A DNA stretch of 64,000 nt from a virus, in the IMG/VR virus record IMGVR_UViG_3300046333_000090; one strand, written 5' to 3'. Each line of letters opens with the position of its first letter. Position 1 is the stretch's first letter. Shown here one piece after another: positions 1,527-64,000 of the stretch. Below the pieces are notes generated by a model that made no database searches, was not told where the DNA came from, and saw only the letters and a program-made list of their open reading frames with translations. The translations under genes and the position numbers were made by a program.

Positions 1527-1551
1527 GCGAGATTTATTAAATTTAATAATT

Positions 1552-2214
1552 ATGACCATAGAATTGGATTTTTGGAATAACCAGCATTACGAAAGAATAG
1601 ATATTGATGGGGTGCGGCATTATGACATATCTGGTCAATATTACCCATCAGTTACTAGTATAGTTGGGGAATTTGGTAAGGATAAATTAAACAAATGGAG
1701 GAAACGAGTAGGAGAAGTAGAAGCGCAACGAATATGTGATGTCGCTTCTGCCAACGGTACTTATATTCATCACTTAGCAGAACAATATCTATTGGGTAAT
1801 CCAATAGATCATAAAGATTCTACTGGATTACAAAAGATGGTATTTGGTAAATTTAAAGAGTCTATCAATAAGATCTCTAAAGTACATTTGCTTGAACATA
1901 CTTTATATTCGCATAAACTTAAATTGGCGGGAACTGTTGATTGTGTTGGCTATTACAATGGTGTATTGTCTGTGATTGACTTCAAGACAAGCAAAAAAGA
2001 AAAACCAATTGAATGGATTGAAAATTATTTTGTACAAACTTGTATCTATGCTATGTGCATTTATGAGATGTATGAAATATGGATTTCACAAATTGTATTA
2101 TTGTTCGCATGTAGTGATCTTACCACACCAATTGTTGTAAAACAAATTGATCGCGAACTTATAGAGTTAACCAAAAAATATTATTATCATTATAAAAATA
2201 ATCATGCTAAATAA
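1552..2214 (+). CDS. PD-(D/E)XK exonuclease
   Basis: YPSVTSI, KWRKRVGE, GTxIH, AGTVDC...VIDFKTS, YFVQ motifs. Confidence 0.88.
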   Translation: MTIELDFWNNQHYERIDIDGVRHYDISGQYYPSVTSIVGEFGKDKLNKWRKRVGEVEAQRICDVASANGTYIHHLAEQYLLGNPIDHKDSTGLQKMVFGKFKESINKISKVHLLEHTLYSHKLKLAGTVDCVGYYNGVLSVIDFKTSKKEKPIEWIENYFVQTCIYAMCIYEMYEIWISQIVLLFACSDLTTPIVVKQIDRELIELTKKYYYHYKNNHAK

Positions 2215-2464
2215 AAAAGGAATAGATATGTTACTAACAGATACACTACTTATTGCGGACAAATTTAATAATATTATCGAATTTAATCGACATAAATTTG
2301 ATAATTATCTAGAAACAATTCTCAATTATTGTATCGAGTATAATATGGAAATGATCCACGTTAAAAAATTATTGAATCCGCAGATTTTGTCCAAAATGAC
2401 AGCAGAATGCGAATCGGATAATTTAATCACTAGAACATCAAATACAGTATCACTGTTCGATTAG
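2204..2464 (+). CDS. gp33: late transcription coactivator gp33
   Basis: YLETILNYC...VKKLLNPQILSKMTAE pattern; synteny with gp59 and gp32. Confidence 0.8.
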   Translation: MLNKKGIDMLLTDTLLIADKFNNIIEFNRHKFDNYLETILNYCIEYNMEMIHVKKLLNPQILSKMTAECESDNLITRTSNTVSLFD

Positions 2465-2476
2465 GAAGGATTATTT

Positions 2477-4328: not shown

Positions 4329-4935
4329 AAATTTCTTCAAATTTGGTACCATCTTCAGTAAGTATATTTGTATTATACCTGATAAGATTACCAAATTCGT
4401 CATCCATATTAAATACTATTGATGGGTTTAGTAATAGTATTTTTCGTTTGTTTTCATTCTGTTCTACAAAATCTTCTCGGTATGTGATAGATGTTTTAGT
4501 AGTACTACCTTGATATAGTACTCCATCTATAGTTACAGAAAAGTCCGAATTGACTATTAGATTAGCAGGGATAATTACTTTTCCATTACTATTTTTTATC
4601 TCTACCGTTTTATAAAATTTAATAGCATTTTGATTAGGTAGTGTATATAATAATTTTTCCACTTGTTCACTATTGACCACCCAATCATTATTACTGGTGA
4701 TATTATTGAATAGTAGAATAGACCAGTAATACTTAGTGTCTCCATAATAATTAAATGCTATCTGTTCTGGTCTTTCCTCATCTTTTACATAATATGTTGT
4801 ATAGAATTGTTTGTTATTTTTTAATTCTTTTATGGTGATGAGTAATCGTCGAAATATATCCGTTACCTTTACATCTTCACCATTAATAGGATTAGTGATA
4901 GTGATTTTAGGATACTCGGTGAAATATGAAGTCAT
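4327..4935 (-). CDS. gp53: baseplate wedge subunit gp53
   Basis: YF..YP.I, VTDIFRR, Y.VKDEERPEQIAFNYYGD..YYW.ILLFN. Confidence 0.9.
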   Translation of the reverse strand: MTSYFTEYPKITITNPINGEDVKVTDIFRRLLITIKELKNNKQFYTTYYVKDEERPEQIAFNYYGDTKYYWSILLFNNITSNNDWVVNSEQVEKLLYTLPNQNAIKFYKTVEIKNSNGKVIIPANLIVNSDFSVTIDGVLYQGSTTKTSITYREDFVEQNENKRKILLLNPSIVFNMDDEFGNLIRYNTNILTEDGTKFEEI

Positions 4936-4949
4936 ATAGTGGATATAAT

Positions 4950-5023
4950 AAATTTTTGATACCAGTAGTCATATTTATAGTTTTCCTGCGTTGTAGGGCA
5001 TTCTAGTCCCCTATCAACGCATA
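4950..5023 (-). repeat. dispersed repeat copy carrying late promoter TATAAATA for gp53
   Basis: CTAGAATGCCCTACAACGCAGGAAAACTATAAATATGACTACTGG on the minus strand. Confidence 0.8.
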
Positions 5024-5044
5024 TTAATACCCGTTTAATTCTAC

Positions 5045-8614: not shown

Positions 8615-8643
8615 TAAATATATTAAATTTAATAATTTAACTG

Positions 8644-9369
8644 ATGAAACTCCCACAAATTGCATACCAGACTTACGAGATGACCTCCGCTATCTCTAAA
8701 AATAAAATTAAATATCGTCCATTTTTGACTGGGGAAGAAAAAATATTATATTTAGCACAAAAAACTGGAGATAATAAACAGATCAAAGATGCGGTGATTC
8801 AAGTTTTGAATAATTGTATCATCACCCCAGGAGTGATTGCGGAAGAATTGTCTGTATTTGATTTGGAGAAACTGTTGTTATCGGTTCGGGCAAAGGCTGT
8901 TGGTGAAGTAATTGATGTACAGATTCCCTGCGATTTAGAACCAGAGGATAATGGTCAACCAGTATATGTGCCAGTTAAGATCAACATCGAAGATATCCTA
9001 GTACATATTCCCCCAGATCATACAAATAAAATAGAAGTTAATGAAAATACTACATTAGTGATGAAATATCCAGGGTTGGATGATTTTTTGTTGGATAACT
9101 TTATTGATGAAGATAGTCAAAAAAATATGTTTGAAATTACCTTATTGTGCTTGGATAAATTAGTAGTAGGAGATGAGATATATGATTTTAATGATGCGTC
9201 TGATGACGATTTGAATGGATTTTTAGACAGTATGCCAACTAAAATATTTGATAAAATTACTAACTTTTTCACCAACCCGCCGAAATTATATCATGATGTA
9301 GTTGTTTATCACCCTGTTTCGGGCAATATTACAAAATTGCGTTTAGAGGGTATACAAGCTTTTTTTTAA
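8644..9369 (+). CDS. gp26: baseplate hub assembly protein gp26
   Basis: LP.I...TYE, IKYRPFL..EEKIL, FDLE.L.L.VRAKAVGE, MKYP, FF..PPKL, LEGIQAFF. Confidence 0.9.
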   Translation: MKLPQIAYQTYEMTSAISKNKIKYRPFLTGEEKILYLAQKTGDNKQIKDAVIQVLNNCIITPGVIAEELSVFDLEKLLLSVRAKAVGEVIDVQIPCDLEPEDNGQPVYVPVKINIEDILVHIPPDHTNKIEVNENTTLVMKYPGLDDFLLDNFIDEDSQKNMFEITLLCLDKLVVGDEIYDFNDASDDDLNGFLDSMPTKIFDKITNFFTNPPKLYHDVVVYHPVSGNITKLRLEGIQAFF

Positions 9370-9551
9370 TCGCATTTGGTTATAATAGTTTAGAAAATAT
9401 TTTCCAGAGAAATTTTGATTTGTTATATATACATAAAATCTCAGCGGAATTTGTTGAATTTAGTGTCCCTTGGGAATTAGATGTCCATATGCAGAGGATC
9501 GCACAATATCAAGATGACCTAAAATATCAAAGAGATACTGCTAATAATTAA
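9360..9551 (+). CDS. gp51: gp51-like hub assembly catalyst; no start codon, probably reached by -1 frameshift from gp26
   Basis: The -1 frame reads FFLIAFGYNSLENIFQRNFDLLYIHKISAEFVEFSVPWELDVHMQRIAQY..., matching the cyanophage gp51 pattern SLENYY..NF.L...HK.S..E.E...PWE.D. T TTT TTT lies at the gp26 end. Confidence 0.7.
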   Translation, partial: FFLIAFGYNSLENIFQRNFDLLYIHKISAEFVEFSVPWELDVHMQRIAQYQDDLKYQRDTANN

Positions 9552-9627
9552 ATTTAATCCCCCTCTAATTAATTAGAGGGGGATTATCATATTTATGATT
9601 TTCGTGCGTTGAGGGGCATATTAACGG
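9547..9627 (-). repeat. dispersed repeat copy with hairpin terminator and palindrome
   Basis: ATGCCCCTCAACGCACGAAAATCATAAATATG, then the TCCCCTCTAATTAATTAGAGGGGGA hairpin, then ATTAAATTTAAT. Confidence 0.7.
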
Positions 9628-12341: not shown

Positions 12342-12426
12342 TTTATTAAATTTAATAATTTATACCAATATTTATAATAATAGTCTATTTTCTAAATATT
12401 GATATCAAGCATTAAATTTAATAAAA

Positions 12427-15684: not shown

Positions 15685-15909
15685 ATATCAGATTAGAGGC
15701 ATCAAACAGATGTCTCTAAATTTTTATCAAATTAATAAACTTGCAAATAACATATGATTCGGTAATTTATTATATGTTTCCAAGACAATATAATATGTTT
15801 GGCAAACCTAATTATATAACTGCCTATCTAGATTATTATGAGTAATTTAATATGATTCACGATATAGTCCTACTCATAAATATTAGTAGGACTATTAAAT
15901 TTAATAATT

Positions 15910-17238: not shown

Positions 17239-17352
17239 GCGGGGTCTAGAATGCTCTACAACGCATGATAACTCAAATAATGACTATTAGGACAACTCAT
17301 AAAAATAATGACCTTCTAATTGATTAGAAGGTCATTTTATTAAATTTAATAA
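17237..17352 (+). repeat. full dispersed repeat copy (core, ATGACCTTCTAA..TTAGAAGGTCAT hairpin, palindrome)
   Basis: Near-identical to copies at 20589, 44202, 49743 and 55231. Confidence 0.88.
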
Positions 17353-20585: not shown

Positions 20586-20588
20586 TAA

Positions 20589-20712
20589 CATACGCTGAGA
20601 GGGGGATAGGATGCCCCTCAACATATGAAAAACAGAAATATGACTACTGGCATCAAATCATAAAAATAATGACTTCCTAATTAATTTTAGAAGGTCATTA
20701 TTAAATTTAATA
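20589..20712 (+). repeat. full dispersed repeat copy
   Basis: Same core, hairpin and palindrome. Confidence 0.85.
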
Positions 20713-21140: not shown

Positions 21141-21166
21141 TATATATTATTAAATTTAATAAAACT

Positions 21167-21419: not shown

Positions 21420-21525
21420 TATTAAATTTAATAAACCCGTTCTAGAATGCGTTAGAACGGGTTTATTTTTATATTTTAATACTAGTAGTCGTATTTATGG
21501 TTATCATGCCTTGTAGGGTATACTA
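21420..21525 (-). repeat. dispersed repeat copy
   Basis: CCCTACAAGGCATGATAACCATAAATACGACTACTAGT, then hairpin and palindrome. Confidence 0.75.
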
Positions 21526-21624: not shown

Positions 21625-24600
21625 ATGAGTATAAGTCGGATACCACCAGAAGGACTGGAATCAGGAAATAAAGTAAATTTATCAAATATTAATGCTTCTG
21701 CTCCAAATATAGTACCACCAATTAATTTTTTCAATGATCTTGGTACTGGTATATTTTCACCAGAACCAGGAGTAGTAGGAGTGGCATCACAAGGGAAAGA
21801 GTTACTGCGGTTTACTCCTGCTGGTATTACTGCTGGTGGATCTATCTACGGTGGGCAAAATCCTGACTTCACTAGCAGTAATGTAGTATTATACGTGAAT
21901 ATTGGCGACAAGAATTGTACTGATTCTGTACTGAATACTGGTGGTAACTTGAATGCTCCATTTAAAACTATTGAACGGGCATTACTAGAAGCAGCAAAAC
22001 GGTCATTTGTATCTGGATTAAATAATGATAAAAATAATGGGTATACTATAATAGTGTATCCTGGGGAATATTTGGTAGATAACCGACCAGGATTAAAGTC
22101 ACAAACATTGATTGCAAATATTGTAAATTTAGAAACAGAACTGTATAAATTTAACCCCGTAGGTGGTGGGTTAATTGTCCCCAGAGGTACGTCTATAATC
22201 GCCATAGACCCACGGAAAACAGTTATTAAACCTAAGTATGTACCAGATCCTACCGTGACGGTGCCAGGGGTCATGTTTGATGGGGCGAATCTGATTGAAA
22301 AAAATAGAGGATATATAATAGAACAAACATATCTACAAATATTGCAAGACTATCCATCAATAGTAAATATAAATCTAACATGTAAACGAGATATAGGATT
22401 TATATTGACCGCGATAACTGAAGATTTAAAAAATGGTGGTAATACTAATAGTTTTATGGCTGGAGAAGCCTATATAGATGGCACCAGTATCGTATATTTG
22501 AGTGGTAGTGAAGTGCTAGTAACTATCGCAGCAATAGAAAAAATAAAACAATTAGCTATAGCTACTGTATTAAATAACTGGACATCTGTAGTAGAAATAA
22601 CAGTAAACAAAACTATTAATAGATATGTGCCAACAGTAGTAATAGATTATGCTGCTAATGGGGATTGTTCATCTGTGGCATCAGCAATTGATAGTTTAAG
22701 TAATATTATCATTGGAATTATATCAGATCCAGTTGGTTATGCTAGTACATTTGTTAAGACTAATGGTATATATGATTCTACTCCAATTTTTAAAGTAACT
22801 GGTTCCACCTACTTTGCAAATCTAACATTTAGTGATGCCAAAATAACACCATACAAAGCTGTATCATATACTGGTGATATTCCCGCATTTGTGATTGCTA
22901 CGAATGCACAATATTCACATAATAAACTAGTAGCATTCGGTTTTGTAGAACAAAGAAATGCCTATGGTGAATTGACAGAATATTATAAAAAAATTAATAC
23001 TTGGGATCTAGTTGTTGACGGTGGCGGCAATAGAGAAGTATTAGTGGATGAATATACAATTGTATCCAAATTATCATCACCAAACTCTGTTAAAGGTGCA
23101 TCCCCCTATGTATTTGGTTGTGCAGTCAGATCGATATATGGGTTAAATGGATTATTAGTAGATGGTAAAAAAGTAGCAAATGATAGTTTTAAATCATTTG
23201 TACTTGCTCAATTCACCACCATCTCATTGCAATTAGATCCGAATGCTTTTATTGGCGATCCTACTGATGCGATAGATTCTACCAATTATGCGCCAAATTA
23301 TAAACATTACGCTTATAAAGTAATAAATAATGCTTATGCCCAAATAGTAAGTTGTTTTGCAATTGGACAAGCACAACAATTTGTAACGGAAACTGGTGGA
23401 GAAGTAAGTATTAATAATAGTACTTCCAACTTCGGTGGAGTATCTTTATATTCTTCTGGCAATTCTCCATATCCATTAAATCAAGATATTGGTCATAATA
23501 TTCTGAAATTGATTCCCCCAAAATTGATTGGTAGTGATTATAGAAGATTAGTTGTTGGTGGATTAGATACAACAAGTACTAATCTGTTTCAATTATATGT
23601 AAATAATTTGAATGACAATAATGGGAATATTATATTCCCACTGAATTCTTACTTTTATGTGGCAGTACCGAATCCACAAAATCCTTCCCAAATATTGAAA
23701 TTACAAGTTAAATTAAATGCAACTGGGTCAAATTCTGGTATTTTTTCTGTTTATGATTATGGAGATTCAAATACAGAAAATACTTTAGCCTTGTATATGT
23801 TTTGTGTTGGGGGTTATCGATTTGAATCTTCTTGGTACGATTCTAATGATCCAAGACCTATTGGAGTTCAAGCGGCTAGCGAAAGTGATAGACGCAGACA
23901 AGAAATTAATAATAGTGATGTTTTTGTAGAAAGATTAGTAGATGACCGAACAGTAGATGAAAAAAATTATTCGTTTTTAGTAGTATCACCATCTACTATC
24001 AGATTGCCTACCAACAACTATATTGTTTCTCAATTGTCCGTGGATAATAATACGGTTGTCAATAAGTATTTTGTTACAAATATTGCGGCAGTAGCAGCTA
24101 ACCAAGTCACTAACAATTATACTACTCAAGGTAATTTGACTACATTGAAAATATTACGAGCGAACAGATTCTCTACACTTAACGATCAATATCCTGATAA
24201 CATTGCAGATCTTAATCCTAGTAGTGCGTATACATTGCTGACTAATAATCTCGATCCACGATTATATACTGATACTACTGCGGTTTCTATAGACAATACA
24301 AATATTAGTTATCTGAGTGTAAAGCAATTACTTTTAGATTTTGGATATTCTACTATTGATGTGGACACATTGTTATTACCAAATGGAGGTACAACATTAC
24401 TGACCAGAGTTAGAAGTTTTATTACTAATGGTAACACTAATAGTACACTCACTGGAGCAGCTATTAAATTTAATATGTTGAAACCATCGATATTGAGATG
24501 TAGTAATCATACATGGGAATATGTAGGATATAAAAATTATACTACCGCATTACCTCAGCTACAAGTAAATATTCTATCAACTGCTGCTAAGTATAAAGCT

Positions 24601-27030: not shown

Positions 27031-27150
27031 TTATTAAATTTAATAAACCCCCTCTAGATGATTCTAGAGGGGGTTTATTTATGATTTGATACTAGTGTCA
27101 TTATTCTAGTTTCTATGCTCTACAAGTCATCCTAGACCCCTCTCAGCACA
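27031..27150 (-). repeat. dispersed repeat copy fused to the 3' end of an HNH remnant
   Basis: ...WDKPIMC-TGA then GAGGGGTCTAGGATG..., hairpin and palindrome. Confidence 0.8.
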
Positions 27151-27415: not shown

Positions 27416-27495
27416 TATATTGTCAGAATACTCTAGAATACTTTAGAATCGATAGTAACTATAAATATGAATAGAAATATTAAATTTAATAAGAC

Positions 27496-29556: not shown

Positions 29557-29815
29557 CTATTCCCTAATGTTCTCTCAGATGCCCCTAGAATGCCTTGTAA
29601 GGTCTTTTGGGGCATTTTGATATAAATCCATATTAAATTTAATACCATGTTGCTGTAGCCAATTCTCGTTAGACTTAATGTTATTACAAATCTTTCAAAA
29701 GAAATATCAAAAAAGATCGAATATCCTCTTGACATTCGATATTCGATAATGTTAGCTTTAGTGCATGGGGAAAACAAACACCCCAACTAACCACTAAACA
29801 GCTAAACGAAATTAT

Positions 29816-31045
29816 ATGTCAATCGAAGTCGTAAACCATACTACAGCAACAGCAACAGGTAAAGTAAAAAGTCCTTCTGCCTACCTCAAATCTATTACAG
29901 ACGCAAAGAAAATTGGCGAATTTTTCACAATTCCTTTATCAGCCTTAGAAATATACCCAAACTTCAACAAGCGCACTGACTATAAACTCGATGAATTGAA
30001 ATTATTTATTGAACAAAACAGTGTTAGTGCATTACCAGCTATCAAGCTAATGTATATCGATGGCAAATTGTATGTAGAAGAAGGGCATCGGCGACAAAAA
30101 GCTTGTGTTGAACTGGACTTGCCCCCAGAAACCCCAATCAAAGTATTTATTGGGGAACCATCATCTTCCGCAGAAAGACTAGCGCGCCAAATTTCCAGTA
30201 ATTCTGGGGAGAAATATAATTTTGTAGAGATGGTGGCGGTGGTTAAAGAGTTGATTCAAAAGGAAGGTATGACCCAGACTCAAGTAGCCAAGATGATTGG
30301 TAAAACTCAAGGTTCTGTAAGTCAGATGTCTTTGTTCTTCAATTACAGCAATCTCTTGCTGCTCGAAATTCAACATGGTTCCATCAAGTATACACGAGTA
30401 ATGGAATTACAAAAATCTGGTTATACCGAAGAACAGATTTTAGAAGTAATCAAGAAAAGTACTCATAATTCTACTTCAGATAAAGCACCAGTACCACCAA
30501 TAAATCCTGATTCTGATAAATTAAACCAATTGTTAGGCGACGATCATCCGATAGATGATAAAAATACATCTGGTGGTAAGCGGAAAGGTAGTAAATCTGG
30601 TGGTAAGCAGAAAGGTAGTAAATCTGGGGGTACGCGGAAAGGGGATGAACCCGTAGAAGAGGATCTGATTAATGCGGAATCCCTAGAAAACCCAGAAGAG
30701 GATCTGATTAATGCGGAATCCCTAGAAAACTCAGAAGAGGATCTGATTAATGCGGAATCCCTAGAAAACTCAGAAGAGGATCTGATTAATGCGGAATCCC
30801 TAGAAAACTCAGAAGATTATGATGACGAAGAACTAAAAAAAGCGGTAATACTCAAAGATAGCGGTGTTGCTCCCAATAAACCAACTGCAACAGAGACTAG
30901 TATTAAAAAAGTTAATGTAAAATTGGTGTTGGTCAATTTCTTCATTGATGCCAAGATTGTTGATAATGGCGATGGTACTGTTTCATACAACATCACCCAA
31001 GAACAGCACGCTGAGTTTCAGCGTAATTGTATGAATATCCAGTAA
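29816..31045 (+). CDS. ParB/Noc-like protein (ParB N-terminal domain, HTH, acidic repeats)
   Basis: NFNKR...LDELK..I...LPAI...EEGHRR..A (GxRR box); GMTQTQVAKMIGKTQGSVSQ HTH; TTGACA promoter at ~29729. Confidence 0.8.
   Translation: MSIEVVNHTTATATGKVKSPSAYLKSITDAKKIGEFFTIPLSALEIYPNFNKRTDYKLDELKLFIEQNSVSALPAIKLMYIDGKLYVEEGHRRQKACVELDLPPETPIKVFIGEPSSSAERLARQISSNSGEKYNFVEMVAVVKELIQKEGMTQTQVAKMIGKTQGSVSQMSLFFNYSNLLLLEIQHGSIKYTRVMELQKSGYTEEQILEVIKKSTHNSTSDKAPVPPINPDSDKLNQLLGDDHPIDDKNTSGGKRKGSKSGGKQKGSKSGGTRKGDEPVEEDLINAESLENPEEDLINAESLENSEEDLINAESLENSEEDLINAESLENSEDYDDEELKKAVILKDSGVAPNKPTATETSIKKVNVKLVLVNFFIDAKIVDNGDGTVSYNITQEQHAEFQRNCMNIQ
30656..30816 (+). repeat. 39-bp tandem repeat x4 (EEDLINAESLEN[P/S])
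   Basis: Direct reading of the sequence. Confidence 0.95.
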
Positions 31046-35097: not shown

Positions 35098-35392
35098 CTA
35101 CAATTATTAAATTTAATAATCTTAGCCGATCTGATTAGATCGGCTATTTTTTATGCCAGATCGATCTCACTCCTCTCTACTGTGCCTAAAATGCCCTATA
35201 AGACGGATCTAACTGATTTTAGGTATATCTCACCTACACCAAAAATACAATGTATAAATTGTAGGTGAAAACAAATGGCTGAGACACAATGTAATCTCTA
35301 AGCCATTATGCCCAATCTCTTGAAATAGCTTGCTATTAGATTCGATTGGTGAGATAGTAAAGAGGTAAGCAACAAATCGAACCATATAAAAA
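35098..35392 (+). repeat. long early-region module: palindrome, terminator, spacer, hairpin, promoter
   Basis: Homologous to 37371-37632, 38805-39110, 41270-41518 and 42000-42307. Confidence 0.85.
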
Positions 35393-37373: not shown

Positions 37374-37632
37374 TTATTAAATTTAATATCTAGATCGATT
37401 ATCCGATCTAGATATCATCTCTATGACCGCTAGAATGCCCCAGAACTGCTCTAATCATCAAACTAGACTCGTACTCGTCTCAATCATTACGACACTGTAT
37501 AAATTGTAGTAGGAAACAAATGGCTTAGACACAACGTAATCTCTAAGCCATTATACTGAATCTCTTAAAATAGCTTGCAATTAGATCGGATTAGTGGGAT
37601 AGTTAAGAAGTCGAGCAAACAACACAACAACA
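37371..37632 (+). repeat. long early-region module copy
   Basis: ...AATGGCTTAGA..TCTCTAAGCCATT...TTGCAA-TTAGATCGGATTAGTGG-GATAGT. Confidence 0.85.
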
Positions 37633-38805: not shown

Positions 38806-39110
38806 CACTACAAATTATTAAATTTAATAATACAAAAGCCGTTCTCATCAGATCGGCTTTTTTGGTTTATAGCAGTTCTACTCGATCCTTAACATCATCT
38901 CTAAGGTGCCCAGAATGCCCTATAACGAATCAAACACTCAAACTAGACTCATAATCACCTTACTAATTACGACACTGTATAAATTGTAGTGATACACAAA
39001 TGGCTTAGACCTATCGTAATCAATACGTCATTATGCTTAATCTCTTAAAATAGCTTGCAATTAGATCGCATTAGTGGGATAGTTGAGAGGTAAACAAATA
39101 GCCGCTAATC
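38805..39110 (+). repeat. long early-region module copy
   Basis: Same organisation as the 35098 copy. Confidence 0.85.
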
Positions 39111-40607: not shown

Positions 40608-40989
40608 CTTTAATACCACAGCCGATCTTAATCAGATCGGCTGTTTTTTTGTACCTGAATTCACCACAAAATACTACATTATTTGGTAGGCACACTCTAT
40701 TATAACAATTTGTTATAACATCAAATATTAATGAATGTTATAATAAATTGTTATAACATTCATTTTGTAGTATTGTTTGGGTGGATATAGAAATCACTCC
40801 AAACCCATACACAGCACTACATTCAGCCATTTCAAAAACTACAAAAGTGACACCACTTTGACACCACTTTTTGTAAGACTTATGGTAAAATCTACTATAA
40901 CTTCTTACATATTAGGCTACAAATCTACTACACATTATTAAATTTAATAGTCTACTGAGCGATCGTTCTCAATGCTAGGTCAACCCCTT

Positions 40990-42625: not shown

Positions 42626-42686
42626 CTACAACTATTAAATTTAATACCTTAGCCGATCTATTAGATCGGCTTTTTTTGTATCAGTC

Positions 42687-44201: not shown

Positions 44202-44338
44202 TTATTAAATTTAATAATGACCTTCTAAAATCAATTAGAAGGTCATTATTTTTATAATTTGGTACTAGTAGTCATTATTTAGATTATCATTCGTTGTAGG
44301 GCATCCTAGAGGGGTCTGAGAGCATAATATAGGTTCCC
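44202..44338 (-). repeat. full dispersed repeat copy (bidirectional terminator)
   Basis: Core, ATGACCTTCTAA..TTAGAAGGTCAT and palindrome, between convergent genes. Confidence 0.88.
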
Positions 44339-46224: not shown

Positions 46225-46565
46225 ACAGTTTGTCTCATTCGCAAATAAAGGATAGTAGGTAAGCATAAATGGCAATGAGGCGGCATACCAGCATTCCAGA
46301 CAATAGGAGATTCTTTATCGTCGTCACATTCTAATCTGTAAGATATTTGAGTAGATTTGGGGAAAGATTTAGTGGTATGGTATAGTTCAAGAACCATATT
46401 AGTGATTACATAATTTACAATTTCTTGGACAGAAGGGACTACGCAAATATAATCTTCGAGATTGATTGATCTTAGGTAATTATTGTCTTGATTGTTTATG
46501 TTTATTGAGTAAATCGTATCTTCGAGATTGATTTGTTTAATGAGTTGATAGATTTGTTGAGTCAT
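46221..46565 (-). CDS. hypothetical protein
   Basis: 114-aa ORF whose stop overlaps the HNH start. Confidence 0.55.
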   Translation of the reverse strand: MTQQIYQLIKQINLEDTIYSININNQDNNYLRSINLEDYICVVPSVQEIVNYVITNMVLELYHTTKSFPKSTQISYRLECDDDKESPIVWNAGMPPHCHLCLPTILYLRMRQTV

Positions 46566-46709
46566 ATTTTGGCGAAAGAGATGAATAATAATTGACTAAT
46601 ACTTTAGTAACATTGTCACACATAGATTGTTGTTCTTCTAGCGTCATTCCTTCCATAAGATTATTACACTCTTGAATGTAGGAATTGACATGATTATTAA
46701 ATTTAATAA

Positions 46710-47414: not shown

Positions 47415-47448
47415 AATTAATCCCCTATAACAAAAATGGTGAGAAATG

Positions 47449-48862: not shown

Positions 48863-49700
48863 TTATAATATTATAACATGCTTCCAGGTTTTTGCTAACT
48901 TTATATCATTAATAGTAGCCTTATGAACATTATATTTTTTTGATATATATATATATATATACTCCAGTAAACCCATCTCTTAGTAATACTTTTATTTCTC
49001 GCACTTGTTGTTCATTTAACTTTGCATGTGGTGCCTTTTCGCCACACAAAGAAACTGACAAGTTTTTTTTATGTTCGTCGGTAAAAATTCGCCCAGCCAT
49101 AACAACTGATAAATGTTTCTTCGCTTCTTCTGATAAAGTTTTTCCCTTTTGAGAAGCAGACATATTTTTCTTAGTTTGCTGCGTGTGTTTATATCCATAC
49201 AAAGGATGTTCTTCCCCAAATTTTCCATACATGGGATTATTACTACCAACTTTGCAATTTGATAGTTTTTGTTTAGTTTTTTCTGATGGAGTGTTACCGA
49301 TATGAGAATCAGACATTTTTTTCCTTGTTGATGTGGAAAAATCTTTTGCAAAATTAGGATGATTTTCACCAGATAACCCGTTACCACCACCAGAAATTGG
49401 CGAAAAATTCATACAATATGGTTTGTGCAAATGTTCGGCGATCAATTCCGTCTCTGCTATCATCAATTCTTCTATGGTGTCATAGTAAGAAAGTATTGTT
49501 CGTCGCAATAGATTCTTATCTTTAATAGACTTCACCCATTTACCAGATCCCAAATAAGGATCATTATCTGGATGTTTGTCTGATGAGTGCATACCGTAAT
49601 ATTTCTTATCACTACCCACTAGGATAGTTTCATACAAATAGTTATATTTTTTAGGGGTTCTGTTGGTCATAAAAATTAATGATAAAGACAGCATTATCAT
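48863..49700 (-). CDS. GIY-YIG (Seg-like) homing endonuclease with NUMOD3 repeats; C-terminal HTH frameshifted at an (AT)n tract
   Basis: YLY.T....K.YYG.HS...DPYLGSG; H...TK..MS repeats. The track ORF ends at 48930; the shifted frame continues ISKKYNVHKATINDIKLAKTWKHV to 48863. Confidence 0.85.
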
Positions 49701-49742: not shown

Positions 49743-49868
49743 TTATTAAATTTAATAATGACCTTCTAAAAATCAATTAGGAGGTCATTATTTTTATGAT
49801 TTGATGCTAGTGGTCATTATTTCAATTAAGACCTGCTACATGGCATTTTAGACCCCTCCCAGGGCATA
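49743..49868 (-). repeat. full dispersed repeat copy
   Basis: Core, hairpin and palindrome. Confidence 0.85.
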
Positions 49869-52800
49869 TTAAACAATAATAGAAACATCAGACTCGATCA
49901 TACAATAATGTTCAGATTCAATTTGCCCATAATAGTACAATTTTGTAGTATAGTTGGTATTAGTTAACCCACTACCAGCATCAATAATTTTTGCTCTAAC
50001 AATACTACCGTTCAAACATTCTAATAAGATCTTAGCAGGGTCAGCAACCCCCTCTACCGCTAACATCATGTAGCGGGGATAATGCAATCCAGCATACACA
50101 ATATCAACGCCAGTCAATTCGCCCCCAACAATATTAAATTTGAATTCAGCGGGGATCACGTCTTTATCATTATTACTATTATATACAATAGAATATACAT
50201 CATCTACTCCAATAGTATCATCAACGATCCAAGCACTCAAATGAGTAATAAAATCAGTAGAATTAACAGTAAGTGTTGTACTAGTAGTAGTATAATTTGC
50301 AGATGGTTGGATAACTCCATTTACAAATAGTATTATGTTTCTATTAGTGGGGTTATTGGTAATGGTATAGATTTTATTGGTAAGGCTGACTAAATTTAAT
50401 GCAGTAAAATTATCACTATAGACCCCATATGCCGTACCAGTAATATTTTGTGTAAAGACAACATTATTACCAACAATACTAAATTCATTATTTGGTACAT
50501 TATTTACAAACATAATCAATTTTGAAACATCTACAGGGACAAAAAGGTTAGTATTTGTGGTGAGTGTGGTAGTATTGGAGTTCGTTAATACTTTTTTGTC
50601 CGTATAAGTTAAAAATGAACTCGGTAGGTTGAGTATAGAGACCCGGTCACTCAAATCATTTATTGTTTGATGAATAGTTACGTTATTGTTAGCCACCGAA
50701 TAATCATAAGATGGATGTTGTGTAACTCCATTGATGTACAAAATTGAATTACTGGCAATCCTACTAACCAAATTATTAAATTTAATAATACTATAGTCAG
50801 TTGCCAATACGGTATTAGAATTAATTTTTTCTAATATCAATCTGTTATGATTTTCTGTCAGCCATACTAGATCTCCGTAATCATAATTGATAAAGGACGA
50901 GTAGTTGCTGTGAACATAATCATTATCATTCCAAATGTAGTCGAAATATTGTTTTTTGAATTTAGTATTTTTGTATAGATCTTCTGGTAATGAATCGATA
51001 TTAATAACGAAATCAGTTTCGTTTTTTTCGGCTAATATACTTAAAATATTCTCGATATTGATCTTATAGTCAATAACATTGTTGATCTGTGTCTCTCTAT
51101 GTAGGTACATCTTCACTATATTATCTATGCTGTATATGCTGTATATCTTATTACCGAGCATATGTACATTATCCACCACAAAATTTTTCCATTCTATTAG
51201 TGAATGTGGGGATTTTATTGAATAAGAATATTGTTGATGAGTAAGGTTGTCTGCGATCACATTATTAGAAGTAATAATACTATCCAAATTATCAGTAAAA
51301 TCTTGAATAGTTTTGTTGCTGGTTGGAGTACAAATTAGTTCTGCTGTACGGACATTATGAATTTTACCAATTTTTCGTCCAGATTCATCCCACAAAAAAT
51401 AATCATTATTCACTACAAATTTTCCAAATAATGATTTCACTTGCAAAGTCGAAGCAATTTTATTATATAAATTAATTTTACCCTTTGCCACATAATTATT
51501 TCTAGTTAATCCATAATAAACAATACTGGTATTGATATCAGATTTGCTTAATATTGGAATGATAGTTGCACCAATACCAATTGATATAGAAACAATAGGA
51601 ATACTTTCAAAATAATTATCACTTTCAATAATGTCAATTCTACTAATAACACTATTAGCAACCACTAAACTAGCAGAAAACTGATTATTTAATACTACAG
51701 AATTTTCAGTATAGCCAATACCATTAGTGATAATTATAAAATCGGTGATGGTATTATTAAATTTAATATCTAAAATCACATCACTATCCACTGAATAATT
51801 TATAGTAGGGTCGCCACCAAACCCATCTCCATTGGTAATATTTTTAATATTTTTAATAGTTCCAATAGTATCACTACGAAATATAATAACTGCACCAACT
51901 CCATATTGTGATAATATAGTATGTGGTGGGATGGATTCTAAATTAATGCCGTTATCAATTATGTTTACTCCAATAATCCCACCAGTATTAGATACTGCTG
52001 AAACGATTATTTTTATATTAACATCTTCAAATTTTATAATATCTCCTACTGCATAATTAATACCAGGAATCTCTATTAGGTAATCATCTATTGCCCCATA
52101 GCTAATATTATCCACCTTTGCCAAATATGGATAAATTTTATTATTTGGTGAAGGGAATTTAACTTCATCATTGTATATTCTGATTGAACCACTAGGAATA
52201 TTGCAATTATTTTGCAATTTCAGATGATTATAGGAATCAAATTTGTATTTGTATTGATTACCGACAAAATAAGGAAATGCGTCGGTTGCAAAATAGCAAT
52301 ATCTACCTTCTGGAAATTCTGGGGTATACGCAAACACCCCATTATACTCATCCAAAACACCACCAATATACTCATAATCTTCAATAAATGTTCCTAATGG
52401 TGCGGTTGGTCTATTAGTAGAAGTAGTAATCTTGAGTGTCCAACTAGAGTATAGTTTATCAACCCCCCCTCTTGGCGCATCTACATATGCTCCATATATA
52501 GGCACACCATCAAATGCCCAACCAATTATGGGAGAATGTACTGTTCTTACTGGTTCAATGTGTACTAATTGTAAATATTGTGGCGAAAAATTAGTATCAG
52601 GTAGATTAGATTCGCCGACCCCACTATCTCCTTGATTATATACATATCCACCAGTACTATCTATAGGGGCATTATTTGCAATATTGTACGTCCAGCTATT
52701 TATAGTCGCAGCAAATACCGCAGAGTTTGGAAAATAATTGACTACCAATGTTGGATTATTGAAGTAGCTAGAACCACCATTTATTACTTCTACAGACACT

Positions 52801-55230: not shown

Positions 55231-55357
55231 TTATTAAATTTAATAAATGACCTTCTAAAATCAATTAGAAGGTCATTATTTTTATGATTTGGTACTAGTA
55301 GTGATTATTTAAATTATCGTGCCTTACAGGGCATTCTAGACCCCCCCTCAGTGTATG
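55231..55357 (-). repeat. full dispersed repeat copy
   Basis: Core, hairpin and palindrome. Confidence 0.88.
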
Positions 55358-55772
55358 TATGATGTGTTTAAGATATCTAACAATAGACAAAATTGATGGA
55401 ATGATAATTTCAACATATCATTTAAAATAAACCAACTATGTCTTTTTTTGGGGTCACTAATCCACTTCACTTCACTTGTTTTTTAGTCAATTCTAATTCT
55501 GTTTGATATTTTAATAAAAACTCACCAGATATAAATTCTGGCAAGTTTAATTCTGTATATGCCTTATCAGAGATATTATTATAATAATATCTCCATTTAA
55601 AATACAAAGAATTCATTCCATTGTCCTCATTCTTCTTAATAGAATACCCAGTAGTAATTCCTAGTATTCCCTCTGCACATAGGCAAGTTTGATCATTTTT
55701 ATCAACCAAACTACAAAACCCTTGTTTATATTTTGCGAAGTTGTCTTTCAGTTCTTGTAATTTGTTAATCAT
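55348..55772 (-). pseudogene. paralog 4 of the MINKL..LKENF family, frameshifted by a 5-bp duplication
   Basis: GTGAAGTGAAG creates TGA; the other frame gives SWFILNDMLKLSFHQFCLLLDILN, matching the paralog C-termini. Confidence 0.75.
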
Positions 55773-58350: not shown

Positions 58351-59148
58351 TTAGCCTATCATGAATATAGGATATTCCTCCCATTCTGATGACATTTTCG
58401 CCAAAAATGCTTCTTTTTCTCGAACACCGTCGTTGTATAGTGAGTCAGCGTTAAACATCACCCCACTAGGAAGTTGTATATTAGAAAATTTTCTTAGATT
58501 TTGCCCAAATTGTATTTTGACAAGTATTGCGAAATATTCTTTGACGAATCTATCATTATATATCTTCGCAAATTGAACAGGATCGAGTGCGCGTTGACAC
58601 TGAATAATTATAAAACGATCTAACATTGATTCAATATCAAAATCTAGATATAATCTACCATTATTTCTATTAAATTTAATAGCAGTTTCCGCATTCAATA
58701 TATTTATAATGTTTTCAATGCTTTGACGTAGTAGATAAATATCAGTCAGATCTAACATCTGACCACCATAAAAGTTAAACTGTTCCATTATGAAGAATTC
58801 GGGGGATCGACCGAACATGTCATGTAGGTAATTATTATTTGTTCTGGCAACACTAGTAATGCCAATTATATAGTCAGGAACTATTAAAAAGTTTTGATTG
58901 TCAAAGAATGACAATCCACCAGGATTCAATATTTGTGTGTGTGTCTTTTTGTTATCAATATCTTGCTGTGTAATTTTATATTTAAGATACACCTCTTCTG
59001 TGCCGTCATACACACGATCCTGGTATAGTTGGAGTACGTCATCAAGAAGTTGTTCTAACTGGGAATTCTCTACATTTATTTCTATTAGTGGCGCACCTAA
59101 TTTCTTTTTTGCGTAATCAAACAATGCTGTGCGAGAATTTATTGACAT
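58351..59148 (-). CDS. gp13: neck protein gp13
   Basis: SR..L.DY..KKLGAP.IEINV...Q, DG.E..YLKY, YND.FVK.Y...L.K.Q.GQNL.KF..IQLP.GV. Confidence 0.92.
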   Translation of the reverse strand: MSINSRTALFDYAKKKLGAPLIEINVENSQLEQLLDDVLQLYQDRVYDGTEEVYLKYKITQQDIDNKKTHTQILNPGGLSFFDNQNFLIVPDYIIGITSVARTNNNYLHDMFGRSPEFFIMEQFNFYGGQMLDLTDIYLLRQSIENIINILNAETAIKFNRNNGRLYLDFDIESMLDRFIIIQCQRALDPVQFAKIYNDRFVKEYFAILVKIQFGQNLRKFSNIQLPSGVMFNADSLYNDGVREKEAFLAKMSSEWEEYPIFMIG

Positions 59149-59176
59149 TTTATTAAATTTAATAATTTTGTGTTAG

Positions 59177-59858: not shown

Positions 59859-60165
59859 TGGCAAAACTTCGATAAATATAACATATGCCAATGGCAGTAG
59901 CTATAAAACACAAGTTATTATGCCAAGAGTAAATGGTAAGCAAATAAATTTTACTTCTAAAGATCTTAATTCCCTCCAGAATATTCATTTTCAGTTTGGT
60001 ACAGAATCAGGATTAGTGTCTCCAGAACGATACCTCAAAGAAACTCCTAACTGGTTGCCCGATTCTACTATCCAATTCTCACTAGAACAGCAGAATAAAC
60101 TAGACCAATTAATTGAAGCACATTTAGAAAATCAGGCATCTTGGGATAAGCCTATTAGATTCTAA
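59859..60165 (+). pseudogene. internally deleted HNH family copy (C-terminal part only)
   Basis: GSSYKTQVIMPR...QFG..SGLVSPERYL...WDKPIRF; family-type TGTTATAATGATTATA promoter upstream. Confidence 0.8.
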
Positions 60166-60272
60166 GAGGGGTCTGGAATGCCCCACAATGCACGATAACT
60201 ATAAATACGAGTGCTAGTGTCATAATCATAAAAATATGACCTTCTAAAAATCAATTAGAAGGTCATATTTTT
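60164..60272 (+). repeat. dispersed repeat copy fused to the HNH remnant stop
   Basis: GAGGGGTCTGGAATGCCCCACAATGCACGATAACTATAAATA..., then hairpin. Confidence 0.85.
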
Positions 60273-60277
60273 GTATA

Positions 60278-63200
60278 TTAAGAAGCAGTACTGATAATTC
60301 TAAGATTTTTTATGGTTGGGTACGATGCTTGATTGTCAGATTTACAAACAATCTTGATTTGAAATTTTTTGTATTGTGGTATGTTTCGTAATTCAAATCT
60401 AAACTCTTTAAAATCACTATTGGCTGGGTATACAATAGATGGAACCAATACAAAGTTATTATTATCAAAATTAGGAGAATTGTCTTCTCTGGATAACTTT
60501 AGATATACTTCAATACTCTCACTGGCGTTTCTAGTTGCATCCAATATGATAGTAATTGCTTGCGACGGAAGAATTAATGATATAGGTTTAGTGATGTATA
60601 CGAATGATGACATAATATAATTAGGTAACAACTCATTCCCAGCAACATTATTAATTATATTGGTGGTAGCTACTACAGAACATTTATCATAGTCAATAAT
60701 TGGTGAGATATTTTCGTTACTGGTGGACATATCTATATTTAATTTCATAGATTTGGTGCCCAATATCGCTTCATTATCGGTAGATGCCACCAATAATGGT
60801 TTGTTGAAATTAGTAGTTTTATCTATAGACAGATCAGAAGTAAATGGAATATATGATGGTTGGATTAGATTAGTACTAGAAATACTAGTTCCAGTAGTGG
60901 CGATTAATGATAAATTAACATTAGTTTCTGGGAAATATTTATAAGATATGTTTGGTGTGACTGATTCATATTGGTGATTGACAGAAACACTAATATTATC
61001 CCCACCACAAACATTCGTATAATTGGCACTAGAAATAGCGTATACCCCAAAATTATCTAAATCAATTGGTACAATCGAAGTAAAGGTTTTATTTAATTCT
61101 ACTAGTGGAATACCATTTATAGAATAAATCTCTACTACACTATTTGTTAAATGCTGAATGATTGAAGTGTTATTCTTACCTCTACCACCAGCAGGGATAG
61201 TGATTAATTTTGTGCCATTATTCACATTAATATATGATAGGATCTCATCATCTATTTTGATATAACCTGGATTGGTGATAGATATTGGTAGATTATTTAT
61301 AAATTGAGGTACCAATTCAGGAGTTTCTACTGGTATCGTTGTAGCCACTGTATACTGAGTGTCAGAAATAATATCAGTCAATATAGTTGGAATATAATTA
61401 GACACTATATTCTTTATAGTCACACTGTTATTAGTGGTGTGCATCCCATGATTTTTGGAATATACACTAACTAAGTTGCTATTTTTTGTTGTGGTTATAT
61501 AATTTCCAATAATTTCTGGGAGATTGTCTTCATTATTAAAATTAATATTTCCAGTCAAACTAAATTTTGCTTTATTCAACTTGAATTTTATCGATTTCTT
61601 ATTGTCTGCGATCCAATTTTTATAGTTTTGTGGGACGTATAGATTGGAAATATTAGGATTTTTGATTGAAACTATATCAGTTGTATTTTTTACTTCAAAG
61701 TCATTACTGAATATTTCATAATTATTTGAGTTAGATAGTACACAAATACAATATTGAGTATTGTCCTTTAAGTATACCATATTATTAAATTTAATAATAG
61801 TAGGCGTATTTCCATCACTACTGGTAACTATATCTTTTGTATTTACGCTTATTTCTGAGTATGGTAGAATAGTTTCAGTAGGATAGTTATTTTCAACAGT
61901 TCTCAACTGAACTATTAAAGGGATGAAATTATCTTTTTTGTTGAAGAATAGTTCTAATGAGGTGATAAAGCAGCCACCAACAATATTGTTATTAAATGAT
62001 TGAGTTATTGGACTATTCCAACCATTATTGTTGATGATATTACCATTGATCTGATTTTGAATTATGTTAGTGTCATTATTTTCAGGAATGCTTAGTGAGA
62101 TGATGTCTTTAGTTTCGATGTTAGAATTGCCACCACACTGAAATATGGTTTTAGCAAATGTAGTATTACCAATTGCGGATAACACTAGTGTTCCTACTGA
62201 AAATTTGTAATCGCTTTTAGTTGGGTTGGGAATAAATACATTTCCTGCAAAATTACCATTGTCATCACTAATGATATCAGTGTTTGTCAAAATTGCAATT
62301 GCCCCCGAAGTTTGTCCAATGATGTATGTGCCGACTCCAATATCCTCCACATTAAACTGATACCCGTCATTCCAATTTATTTTTATGGTGTTAGTGGTGC
62401 CAGTGTACACTCCACTAGATAAACTATCTACTTTGGCGGATATATAATTTGATAGTACTGTTGGCTGATATCTTGAACCTGTTAATACTCTAGTATTGAC
62501 ATTTCTCCACAACAATTTTTCACCAACTACAAATGATATAGTATTAGTGCCATTAGTACCATCCTTTTTAATTACACAAGTAGAGGGTACTACTAGATCT
62601 GTAATATTTTTTGAATTTATATATACATCCAGTTTAGTGTTTGGTTTTAGTGCATCTATATTTATTTTTATAGTTTGTTGTTTTAAGTAATTGTTGGTGT
62701 TAGTATTTTTCTTAGTAGATTTGTTGCTGGTGATAGGCAACCAATTTTCTTTGTCAGAGTAATCTCCATAAAACCAATTGTCAGAACTAGGATGAGTGTT
62801 TATAACACCTTCCCAATTATTCAACGCATATGGATTGACCTTCAATACATAATTTTTGTTATTTTGTTCGATAAATGTTGCCTCAGTATATGGTAGACTG
62901 ATTAAATTATTGCTTATTTTGTAACTACCATTATTAATTTTCAATTTTATATTTTTACTTGCAGTCTTTGGTACTAAAGTTTGATCATCGGGATTTATGC
63001 TGCTTTTATATGCTAAATTACTTATGTCGGATAATTGGTAATTTAAAAATTCATCTACCACAAATCCAGTCTTTAGTCGAACTATTCCAGTATTGTCTAG
63101 TAATACTGTATTATTGGCAGTAGATTCTAATTTGTTTAATGCTATTTCATTTTCTGTATTTTTTATTCTTTTTTCTAAATTTCCAATATCTTCCATAGTG

Positions 63201-64000
63201 TATCTCTTGTTTGGATACACCACAGTTTTAATGTCACTAATAGCTTTAACTACTGGTGGGATTTGTAATGTTGCTATCGCCAAACAATCTTGTGGCAGAT
63301 CGGGATTATTTGGATTGTTTGCCGAAATACCACTAATTATTCTACATTTACCAGTAGTATCTATTATTAGTAAATCTGTTCTAGGAGTGTAATAATTATA
63401 ATCACCTTTTAGTATGGTGCTTGGTGCAGGAAATGATCTTAGTTTTAATAGTCTGGTGCTGGGGTTTAGACCACTATACAACAAACTATATGGGGATAGG
63501 AGATTGCCTAGTCCAACAATTGTTGGAGATTTAGCATAGTATCTCAAATCGATTATATTAGTCTCTATATCATCAGTTGGGTTGATGTAAGAATCAATAC
63601 TCGTTATATCTCCTATACTAGTGTTAAAATAATCAAACACCACTACTAAATGATTGGTGGGTATGTTACTATTATTGATTATGGTCAATTTGTCGATGTC
63701 ATGAATGTTATTATTACTATTTTTTATTAATTTGTAATTGCCAGTTACATCAATATAATTTCCTCTATATACATTTGTCACTGTACTAGTAGTTGCAGTA
63801 TTCCAATTGAACGCTGTATCAGCAATATTAAAATGATTGCTACTGTAATATATTAAATTTAATATATTACCAGTTATGCCTATTATTTTGGCTTTTATAT
63901 TCTTGTTATAAACAATATCACCTACATTAAATAATGAATTGTTGGATATAGTGATATTGTCGAAACATTCATTAGTGTAGTTGTTATTGGTATTGTCATT
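60278..64000 (-). CDS. very large virion structural protein (DUF4815-like), start beyond the window end
   Basis: KRYTM.DIG.LEKRI.N.E, RLKTGFVVD.F, VNPY, QSF...GG.FITS..LFF..KD. The frame stays open from 63781 to 64000. Confidence 0.8.
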   Translation of the reverse strand, partial: NDNTNNNYTNECFDNITISNNSLFNVGDIVYNKNIKAKIIGITGNILNLIYYSSNHFNIADTAFNWNTATTSTVTNVYRGNYIDVTGNYKLIKNSNNNIHDIDKLTIINNSNIPTNHLVVVFDYFNTSIGDITSIDSYINPTDDIETNIIDLRYYAKSPTIVGLGNLLSPYSLLYSGLNPSTRLLKLRSFPAPSTILKGDYNYYTPRTDLLIIDTTGKCRIISGISANNPNNPDLPQDCLAIATLQIPPVVKAISDIKTVVYPNKRYTMEDIGNLEKRIKNTENEIALNKLESTANNTVLLDNTGIVRLKTGFVVDEFLNYQLSDISNLAYKSSINPDDQTLVPKTASKNIKLKINNGSYKISNNLISLPYTEATFIEQNNKNYVLKVNPYALNNWEGVINTHPSSDNWFYGDYSDKENWLPITSNKSTKKNTNTNNYLKQQTIKINIDALKPNTKLDVYINSKNITDLVVPSTCVIKKDGTNGTNTISFVVGEKLLWRNVNTRVLTGSRYQPTVLSNYISAKVDSLSSGVYTGTTNTIKINWNDGYQFNVEDIGVGTYIIGQTSGAIAILTNTDIISDDNGNFAGNVFIPNPTKSDYKFSVGTLVLSAIGNTTFAKTIFQCGGNSNIETKDIISLSIPENNDTNIIQNQINGNIINNNGWNSPITQSFNNNIVGGCFITSLELFFNKKDNFIPLIVQLRTVENNYPTETILPYSEISVNTKDIVTSSDGNTPTIIKFNNMVYLKDNTQYCICVLSNSNNYEIFSNDFEVKNTTDIVSIKNPNISNLYVPQNYKNWIADNKKSIKFKLNKAKFSLTGNINFNNEDNLPEIIGNYITTTKNSNLVSVYSKNHGMHTTNNSVTIKNIVSNYIPTILTDIISDTQYTVATTIPVETPELVPQFINNLPISITNPGYIKIDDEILSYINVNNGTKLITIPAGGRGKNNTSIIQHLTNSVVEIYSINGIPLVELNKTFTSIVPIDLDNFGVYAISSANYTNVCGGDNISVSVNHQYESVTPNISYKYFPETNVNLSLIATTGTSISSTNLIQPSYIPFTSDLSIDKTTNFNKPLLVASTDNEAILGTKSMKLNIDMSTSNENISPIIDYDKCSVVATTNIINNVAGNELLPNYIMSSFVYITKPISLILPSQAITIILDATRNASESIEVYLKLSREDNSPNFDNNNFVLVPSIVYPANSDFKEFRFELRNIPQYKKFQIKIVCKSDNQASYPTIKNLRIISTAS

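Follow-up and report, generated by a model that had tools for sequence, protein, structure and literature searches.

To our knowledge, dispersed exact operators that are served by one reader protein have been described for a plasmid (KorB), for a chromosome (Noc) and for temperate mycobacteriophages but not for T4-like lytic phages, in which the timing of expression is thought to rest on promoter classes and on coupling to replication. Here we analyzed a 64,000-nucleotide (nt) stretch of DNA (the window) from an uncultured virus, IMG/VR record IMGVR_UViG_3300046333_000090, across which a perfect palindrome of 14 bp, TATTAAATTTAATA, is repeated and which encodes a ParB-like protein, P0001, that is a candidate reader of these sites.

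KorB of plasmid RK2 acts as a global regulator from an exact palindromic operator, OB, which lies at a variable distance from its promoters, and the protein slides to promoters up to 1.5 kb away (PMC11790492). P0001 resembles KorB in its ParB-CTPase (CTP, cytidine triphosphate) fold, its helix-turn-helix (HTH) and a predicted dimerizing C-terminal domain, and KorB gave the best superposition. RK2 is however a plasmid, which KorB also partitions together with the ParA-type protein IncC, and KorB has a clamp-locking partner in KorA, whereas no ParA was seen in the visible ~59% of the phage genome, no such partner is known for P0001 and its box III is altered. The phage site moreover has another sequence, built of A and T only, is far more numerous (at least 43 copies) and is also found in genes and late leaders. 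Noc of Bacillus (7nfu, 7ol9) is a ParB-family paralogue with tens of dispersed palindromes of ~14 bp (Noc-binding sites, NBS) and was among the top fold matches, but it is a division-site selector, a role with no obvious meaning for a lytic phage; P0001 scored 20.7 bits against the Noc-specific model TIGR04285 (cut-off 315) and no N-terminal membrane-targeting helix was evident in its sequence. In a survey of the ParB-CTPase fold the layout of HTH plus dimerization domain was almost exclusive to plasmids and chromosomes, phages having different fusions (PMC12704722).

Among phages, the Cluster A mycobacteriophages carry dozens of near-identical 13-bp stoperators, mostly at gene boundaries, where one bound phage protein silences or terminates transcription genome-wide (PMC9283540, PMC6550527). 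Stoperators are asymmetric and orientation-dependent and belong to a monomeric immunity repressor of temperate phages, whereas the site described here is a perfect dyad with symmetric flanks, ten copies of which are intragenic. A second likeness is to the PeSLs, modules of terminator and sigma70 promoter between genes of T4-like phages that vary among close relatives; the accessible parts of the papers on them describe a stem-loop with a promoter and no invariant palindrome (PMC2839356, PMC4122927). A terminator stem-loop with a sigma70-type early promoter, repeated and variable between relatives, was found at ~17 of our sites and not at ~24 sites outside such cassettes; the 14-mer also lies in late leaders and in coding regions, and a cassette may lack it. 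HIP1 (GCGATCGC) is an 8-bp GC-rich palindrome that is over-iterated in cyanobacterial chromosomes, also within genes, and whose function is unsettled. Like HIP1, the phage motif is a short perfect palindrome that far exceeds expectation and enters genes, but it is 14 bp long, all A/T, phage-specific and tied to gene boundaries.

The window, which represents bases 17734-81733 of a 109,315-bp record with 33% G+C and linear ends, contained 29 copies of the 12-mer ATTAAATTTAAT and 27 of the 14-mer, against 0.13 and 0.01 in dinucleotide shuffles, and 14 copies reached the 16-mer. These counts agree with those of an earlier, sequence-only reading of the window, and put ~0.2 copies down to chance; Markov models of orders 0-4 gave 0.23-0.35 copies of the 12-mer across the whole record. 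In the record as a whole the 12-, 14- and 16-mer were found 43, 40 and 23 times; the record is ~59% complete by CheckV estimate and 43 is a lower bound for the genome. An artefact of chance or composition was ruled out by the shuffles, by the Markov models and by synonymous-codon shuffles.

Enrichment was all-or-none. The record held 40 perfect 14-mers and just nine one-mismatch versions, and every one of the 43 TTAAATTTAA 10-mers fell within a full site. Outside full sites the half-site TATTAAAT occurred 45 times with ~41 expected, that is at chance level, so that the whole dyad alone is enriched; a half acting as a -10-like promoter box was therefore rejected. Conservation of the flanks was symmetric and weakened over 2-4 further bases towards AATT on each side. 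A literature search for the 12-mer returned no phage context, and scans of viral contigs with the 16-mer and with a pattern of late box plus motif gave scattered, chance-like single matches. Five genomes (5-9 Mb) of the cyanobacterial lineages closest to the TnpB encoded in the window contained 0-1 copies, no more than a reversed-sequence control.

Sites recurred about every 2.5 kb and were spaced more evenly than expected, with a coefficient of variation of the gaps of 0.64 as compared with ~0.98 for random positions (P ~0.001) and 0.99 for random gene boundaries plus random coding positions (P=0.0006). When the intergenic sites were held fixed, the intragenic ones occupied long gaps beyond chance (P ~0.009). 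Density ranged from 0.17 to 0.47 per kb over the record, lower in its first 17.7 kb, and was alike in early, structural and replication regions.

About ten copies lay deep in long open reading frames (ORFs), including those for a tail fibre, structural proteins of 1768 and 2011 aa and the DNA polymerase, and all six copies that had been placed in structural genes (24463, 50775, 51756, 58669, 61784, 63852) were confirmed to lie inside long ORFs. The tetrapeptide IKFN appeared 11 times in the proteome (0.65 expected) while each of its 23 permutations appeared 0-2 times, and 10 of the 11 were encoded exactly as ATT AAA TTT AAT. The synonymous-codon test, which the sequence-only reading had proposed for these positions, was positive: shuffling with proteins unchanged left 2.3 copies on average and at most 6. 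In contig L120, the sole close relative (polymerase 86% identical in aa and 84% in nt), the polymerase-internal site was intact at the same position although ~8 of 50 flanking nucleotides differed. The intragenic copies are under nucleotide-level selection, and hitch-hiking on repeats therefore cannot explain the motif, as the earlier reading had argued. In two cases (24463, 61784) an in-frame ATG comes 0-3 nt after the site. Whether or not P0001 is involved, a 14-bp palindrome that recurs every 2.5 kb and shapes protein sequence (IKFN) is a DNA-level constraint across a phage genome.

Nearly all sites fell into three contexts (Table 1). In class A (~14 sites) a real gene began 3-10 nt after the site, and most of these sites had a T4-type late box (ATAAATA or CTAAATA) 8-13 nt upstream (exactly 11 nt in six), so that the site would occupy about +4 to +18 of the late transcript. 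We considered the 14-mer itself as a T4-type late box (TATAAATA) and rejected this, the ATAAATA boxes being separate from it; many late-type boxes and late genes were without a 14-mer. In class B (~17 sites) it lay 0-3 nt from a strong hairpin, always in the order site, stem-loop, T-run, and of 19 strong terminator-like hairpins within the first 60 kb ~14 carried the site or a version with 1-2 mismatches. Class B cassettes read in one direction as site, terminator, spacer of ~90-200 nt and sigma70-type promoter, and on the other strand contain a late-type box aimed back at the hairpin. The intragenic copies (~10) make up class C. Placement in late-promoter leaders and terminator cassettes points to control of transcription units.

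Several cassettes include an element of ~100 nt with a late-type box (…ACGCAyGAtAACT ATAAATA TGACTACTAGTAC…) directed into the hairpin and the 14-mer. Nothing codable follows several of these elements, which may give rise to short late RNAs of ~60-70 nt ending at the hairpin, or to antisense RNA. Strong early terminators at 40056, 40602 and 42017 were preceded by degenerate sites (TATTACCTTTAATA once, TATTAACTTTAATA twice), which retained the hairpin-side half with the dyad broken.

The position of the site relative to these signals shifted between relatives. Cassettes present in this phage were absent from L120 or the reverse, and one L120 cassette was without an intact site. At the head-completion gene the site upstream overlaps the late box in L120 and precedes a hairpin here, and in L114 and L269, two contigs with P0001 homologues, a TTGACA -35 box followed a site at a distance of 5-7 nt. 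The site can thus be separated from the cassette, and what stays constant is the sequence itself.

We consider TATTAAATTTAATA to be a phage-specific dyad site that is probably read whole, by a homodimer on double-stranded DNA, and would give this a probability of roughly 60%. The argument is that the dyad is perfect and enriched all-or-none, that its flanks are symmetric, that it is under selection at codon level inside genes, and that it is evenly spaced, specific to the phage and variably offset from promoters.

P0001 is the best candidate for the reader on account of its family, its architecture and its early expression. It had been noted as ParB-like from a GHRR box and an HTH, and it proved to be a genuine protein of the ParB/Noc/KorB fold by sequence, conservation and predicted structure. 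Its box II reads EEGHRRQKA (GxRRxxA patch) and is followed by the HTH, where Pfam HTH_3 and HTH_ParB matched residues 133-200; G90, R92 and R93 were invariant and A96 nearly so across 30 homologues. It matched phrog_1033 (ParB-like) at 1.9e-21, and phmmer against a library of 1.8 billion proteins returned 265 relatives, mostly of ParB size, at 24-33% identity. Residues 31-220 were predicted with pLDDT >90, and the top Foldseek matches of the model (E ~1e-7) were ParB bound to CTP or CDP (cytidine diphosphate), Noc, a Noc-NBS DNA complex and KorB. The model superposed on the DNA-binding domains of ParB and Noc, and best of all on KorB of RK2 (8qa9; TMt 0.63, root-mean-square deviation 4.4 Å). 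Look-alike ParB/Spo0J-HTH proteins occur in the phages VpV262, phi50-12 and SP069.

From the N terminus P0001 consists of a domain with the GHRR box, the HTH, a variable acidic linker of four to five 13-residue repeats and a conserved C-terminal domain of 50 residues. The linker differed in length and sequence in every homologue; in the gene it corresponds to four to five tandem 39-nt repeats (30616-30849) encoding EEDLINAESLEN(S/P). Two C-terminal domains were predicted to pair symmetrically, with a score of 0.46 (best of three controls, 0.01), at least 87% of contacts common to the runs and a partner pLDDT of at least 71; among proteins of solved structure, 20 of 30 one-chain pairs and 1 of 23 single chains attained this mark. 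Homodimerization of this domain is thus a prediction from modelling, and the pass may show only likeness to known structures because ParB C-terminal dimers have already been solved.

That the gene is early, as had been proposed, agrees with the sigma70-type early promoter upstream of it. The sequence-only reading had also put a 14-mer ~100 bp upstream of the -35 box; the site is there, at 29632, and ends 85 nt before the TTGACA at 29729. Inverted and direct ATTCGAT repeats (29716-29760) straddle this TTGACA and are a candidate separate operator, distinct from the 14-mer. Pfam identified no domains, and no other recognizable DNA-binding domain was seen, in 20 early ORFs.

Contigs with P0001 homologues were few (four or five) and short (2-9 kb), and ParB-based scans of viral and metagenome contigs yielded no further usable relatives. 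L114, whose homologue is 64% identical, carried one exact site and also a site with one mismatch, the latter in the corresponding position ahead of the gene. The predicted recognition helices VSQM, VSQM, VSNM and VSAM varied in step with the site variants, over four contigs, too few to count. In L116 (711-3681) a longer inverted repeat (CTAGAATGC … GCATTCTAG) brackets a motif-like element, upstream of TTGACA-17-TATATT early promoters.

Several observations weigh against this picture. On the protein side, the match of P0001 to TIGR00180 (E=8.5e-9) fell below the model cut-off, Pfam ParB_N had no match in the record, and the stretch aligned with box III, ISSNSGEK, conserves N129 but has Ser at the Glu position (S-N in place of the canonical E-N of the ENxxR residues on which CTP hydrolysis depends), in an uncertain register; for these three reasons CTP-dependent clamping by P0001 is uncertain. 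Its close family is tiny, with five members. Among the relatives, L115 and L269 each had a one-mismatch site, L116 had three reduced versions (TATCnnATTTAATA) in homologous cassettes, and L267/L268 (the P0005 contigs) had the ParB-like gene and no motif in 3.6 kb. On the DNA side, ~70% of sites stood at fixed offsets in cis-regulatory signals (late leaders, terminator cassettes), which could reflect a direct role in transcription or RNA with no dedicated binder. We infer the link between P0001 and the sites, and in a record of this completeness the early ORFs, most of them orphans, could hide another binder.

With these points taken together we only tentatively name P0001 as the reader, at somewhat below even odds, in which case the 14-mer would be a dispersed dyad operator or loading site of the KorB or Noc kind. 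Sites would be placed at transcription-unit boundaries where possible, over +4 to +18 of late promoters or flush against intrinsic terminators, and where a long gene would otherwise leave a gap the site would be written into the coding sequence. P0001 would dock or load there, possibly as a nucleotide-gated sliding clamp, and once bound it might define or insulate transcription units or control when late genes are expressed, in the manner of KorB on RK2 and of the stoperator-bound repressors in mycobacteriophages. A clamp with a sliding range of one or two kilobases would fit the ~2.5-kb spacing. If P0001 does read the sites, CTP-switch clamps extend to gene control in virulent phages, and the two would make a compact orthogonal protein/operator pair. 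A further-reaching version, which we regard as doubtful, is that nucleotide-gated clamps at ~70 exact dyads about one sliding distance apart cover the genome or partition it into insulated units and possibly mark self DNA; were it true, it would give virulent phages their first genome-wide system of the Noc/KorB kind, with sites even within structural genes.

The parS-type partition that the sequence-only reading had entertained is unlikely, because the visible ~59% of the genome gave no AAA_31 or CbiA match and hence no ParA-type ATPase, and because the sites lie dispersed across the record. The N terminus of P0001 has no LG(K/R)GL ParA-binding motif and the sites are not clustered near parB or an origin, both unlike a ParABS system.

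Turning to other explanations, the symmetry, the all-or-none enrichment, the codon selection, the spacing and the phage specificity fit equally well with another dimeric phage protein, which might be a small early orphan or be encoded in the 41% of the genome that is missing. The 20 early ORFs with no recognizable domain, the incomplete record and the P0005 contigs leave room for such a reader, which we nevertheless judge rather unlikely: P0001 alone among the proteins in view has an HTH with a predicted dimerization domain, its family typically reads palindromes of 13-16 bp, and the contigs of its closest homologues do bear the motif.

The main rival dispenses with a binder altogether and treats the 14-mer as a purely cis-acting part of PeSL-like cassettes, kept uniform by recombination or gene conversion. 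On late mRNAs it would be an unstructured A/U leader driving Shine-Dalgarno-independent initiation, which accords with the ~14 sites 3-10 nt before starts, mostly with a late box 8-13 nt upstream, and with the two intragenic copies followed by an in-frame ATG. At hairpins an A-tract and a weak A/U hybrid would make the terminators bidirectional; ~14 of the 19 strong terminators have the motif or a version with 1-2 mismatches, with AATAA pairing to TTATT, and the degenerate versions keep the hairpin-side half. Cassettes are also gained and lost between relatives, as happens with PeSLs (PMC2839356, PMC4122927). Classes A and B are each accounted for in this way, taken one at a time. It is however left unexplained why two unrelated jobs should share one exact 14-bp dyad, why half-sites are not enriched and why spacing is even, and many late genes lack the motif. 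About eight deep intragenic copies, moreover, have no hairpin, late box or ATG and yet are codon-selected and conserved in L120, and gene conversion of the bare 14-mer is unlikely because the flanks of different copies share no homology. We therefore hold this alternative to be unlikely.

It seems improbable that a phage endonuclease or nickase, such as one of the five-member HNH family, acts at the dyad. Regular nicks or breaks could feed recombination-dependent replication, load the sliding clamp for late transcription or mobilize cassettes and homing genes; the sites are exact, as enzyme targets usually are, and evenly spaced, five HNH_3 paralogues and a NUMOD3 endonuclease gene are present, and two of the HNH genes have their stop codons 3 nt away from a site, where the homology between these loci ends. 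Cutting itself at 43 or more sites would however oblige the phage to protect them or to nick strictly, and there is no sign of either; a free-standing homing endonuclease usually recognizes a long asymmetric site beside its own gene, and the other HNH copies do not adjoin the motif. Binding or titration of a host factor, a cyanobacterial nucleoid protein or transcription factor, which the sequence-only reading had raised as an option, is highly improbable even though the central AAATTT tract is a classic narrow-minor-groove element, because 0-1 copies in the five genomes from candidate host lineages, no more than in the reversed control, speak against a host regulon with this operator.

Table 1. 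Positions of the motif copies and associated features in the window (anything outside it is labelled).
Feature	Position	Strand	Remarks
14-mer, class A	1535..1548		4 nt before ATG of ORF 1552-2214
14-mer, class A	8621..8634		10 nt before ATG of 8644-9369; ATAAATA directly upstream
12-mer, class B	9547..9558		fused to hairpin 9555-9586; convergent genes either side
14-mer, class A	12344..12357		3 nt before ATG of minus-strand gene 9642-12341; late box 12 nt upstream
13-mer, class A	12411..12423		3 nt before ATG (12426) of M23-peptidase structural gene
14-mer, class A	15893..15906		ATAAATA, 11 nt, site, 4 nt, ATG of tail gene 15910-17238
14-mer, class B	17338..17351		adjoins hairpin 17307-17336; 3 nt from stop of HNH gene 17354-18049
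14-mer, class B	20699..20712		after cassette element 20587-20670 and hairpin
14-mer, class A	21148..21161		6 nt before ATG of small ORF 21167-21346
14-mer, class B	21420..21433		late box 11 nt upstream; then hairpin 21430-21467, T-run
14-mer, intragenic	24462..24475		tail-fibre ORF 21550-25365, IKFN; in-frame ATG directly after
14-mer, class B	27032..27045		12 nt past stop of 25407-27020; then hairpin 27042-27079
14-mer, class A	27478..27491		ATAAATA, 11 nt, site, 5 nt, ATG of 27496-28407
14-mer	29631..29644		85 nt upstream of -35 box of ParB-like gene; one-mismatch counterpart in L114
14-mer, class B, early cassette	35105..35118		stop codon, site, hairpin 35123-35146, T-run
14-mer, class B, early cassette	37375..37388		2 nt past stop of 36534-37373; then hairpin
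14-mer, class B, early cassette	38816..38829		
14-mer, early region	40936..40949		without strong adjoining hairpin
14-mer, class B, early cassette	42633..42646		then hairpin 42651-42671, T-run
14-mer, class B	44203..44216		hairpin 44213-44250; convergent genes either side
14-mer	46695..46708		3 nt from stop of HNH gene 46710-47456; 4 nt before small minus-strand ORF
14-mer, class B	49744..49757		hairpin 49754-49792; between 1768-aa gene and NUMOD3 endonuclease gene
14-mer, intragenic	50774..50787		1768-aa structural ORF 49869-55175, IKFN frame
14-mer, intragenic	51755..51768		1768-aa structural ORF, IKFN frame
14-mer, class B	55232..55245		hairpin 55246-55277; 57 nt upstream of 1768-aa gene start
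14-mer, intragenic	58668..58681		ORF 58351-59148, IKFN frame
14-mer, class A	59151..59164		3 nt before ATG of minus-strand gene 58351-59148
14-mer, intragenic	61783..61796		2011-aa ORF (60278 onward, minus strand); in-frame ATG 3 nt after
14-mer, intragenic	63851..63864		2011-aa ORF, LNL frame
~100-nt cassette elements	17204-17301, 20587-20670, 28384-28481, 31575-31672, 60131-60228	+	
~100-nt cassette elements	4924-5026, 21444-21546, 44227-44329, 49769-49871, 55257-55359	reverse orientation	
Sigma70-type early promoter of ParB-like gene	29729..29763	+	TTGACA, ~17 nt, -10-like box; ATTCGAT repeats straddle it
P0001, 409-aa ParB/KorB/Noc-like protein	29816..31045	+	candidate site reader
HNH_3 endonuclease paralogues	17354-18049, 45526-46275, 46710-47456	minus	
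HNH_3 paralogues outside window	L118:6250-7035, L119:3434-4132		remnant in window, 27145-27364
NUMOD3 endonuclease gene	48930-49700		
Dam-like methyltransferase gene	47449-47949		

The record encodes T4-type replication proteins (gp43-type polymerase, primase, gp32, gp59, a split ribonucleotide reductase) together with T4-type baseplate, sheath and head-completion proteins. Megablast against phages gave no relatives, and the closest cultured relatives by tblastn were distant T4-like cyanomyoviruses (46% identity for the polymerase, 28% for a tail protein), beside which tblastn gave just a weak ParB match in Pseudomonas phage PPpW-3. The phage is T4-like, a cyanophage and presumably lytic. Searches for known RNA families and tRNAs gave none, and no phage-encoded sigma70-type factor was present in the ~59%-complete record.

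A full-length TnpB (32027-33163; OrfB_IS605 plus a Cas12f-like TNB domain) lies inside this T4-like phage, and its best matches, at 53-57% identity, were from filamentous cyanobacteria (Microcoleus, Nostoc, Anabaena), which hints that the host is a filamentous cyanobacterium. Outside the window (L117:4687-11231 and L119:857-5767), matches to PHROG families indicated that the large subunit of ribonucleotide reductase is split and that the small subunit has a large insert, and the same regions contain terminase-like pieces on opposite strands flanking an HNH gene.

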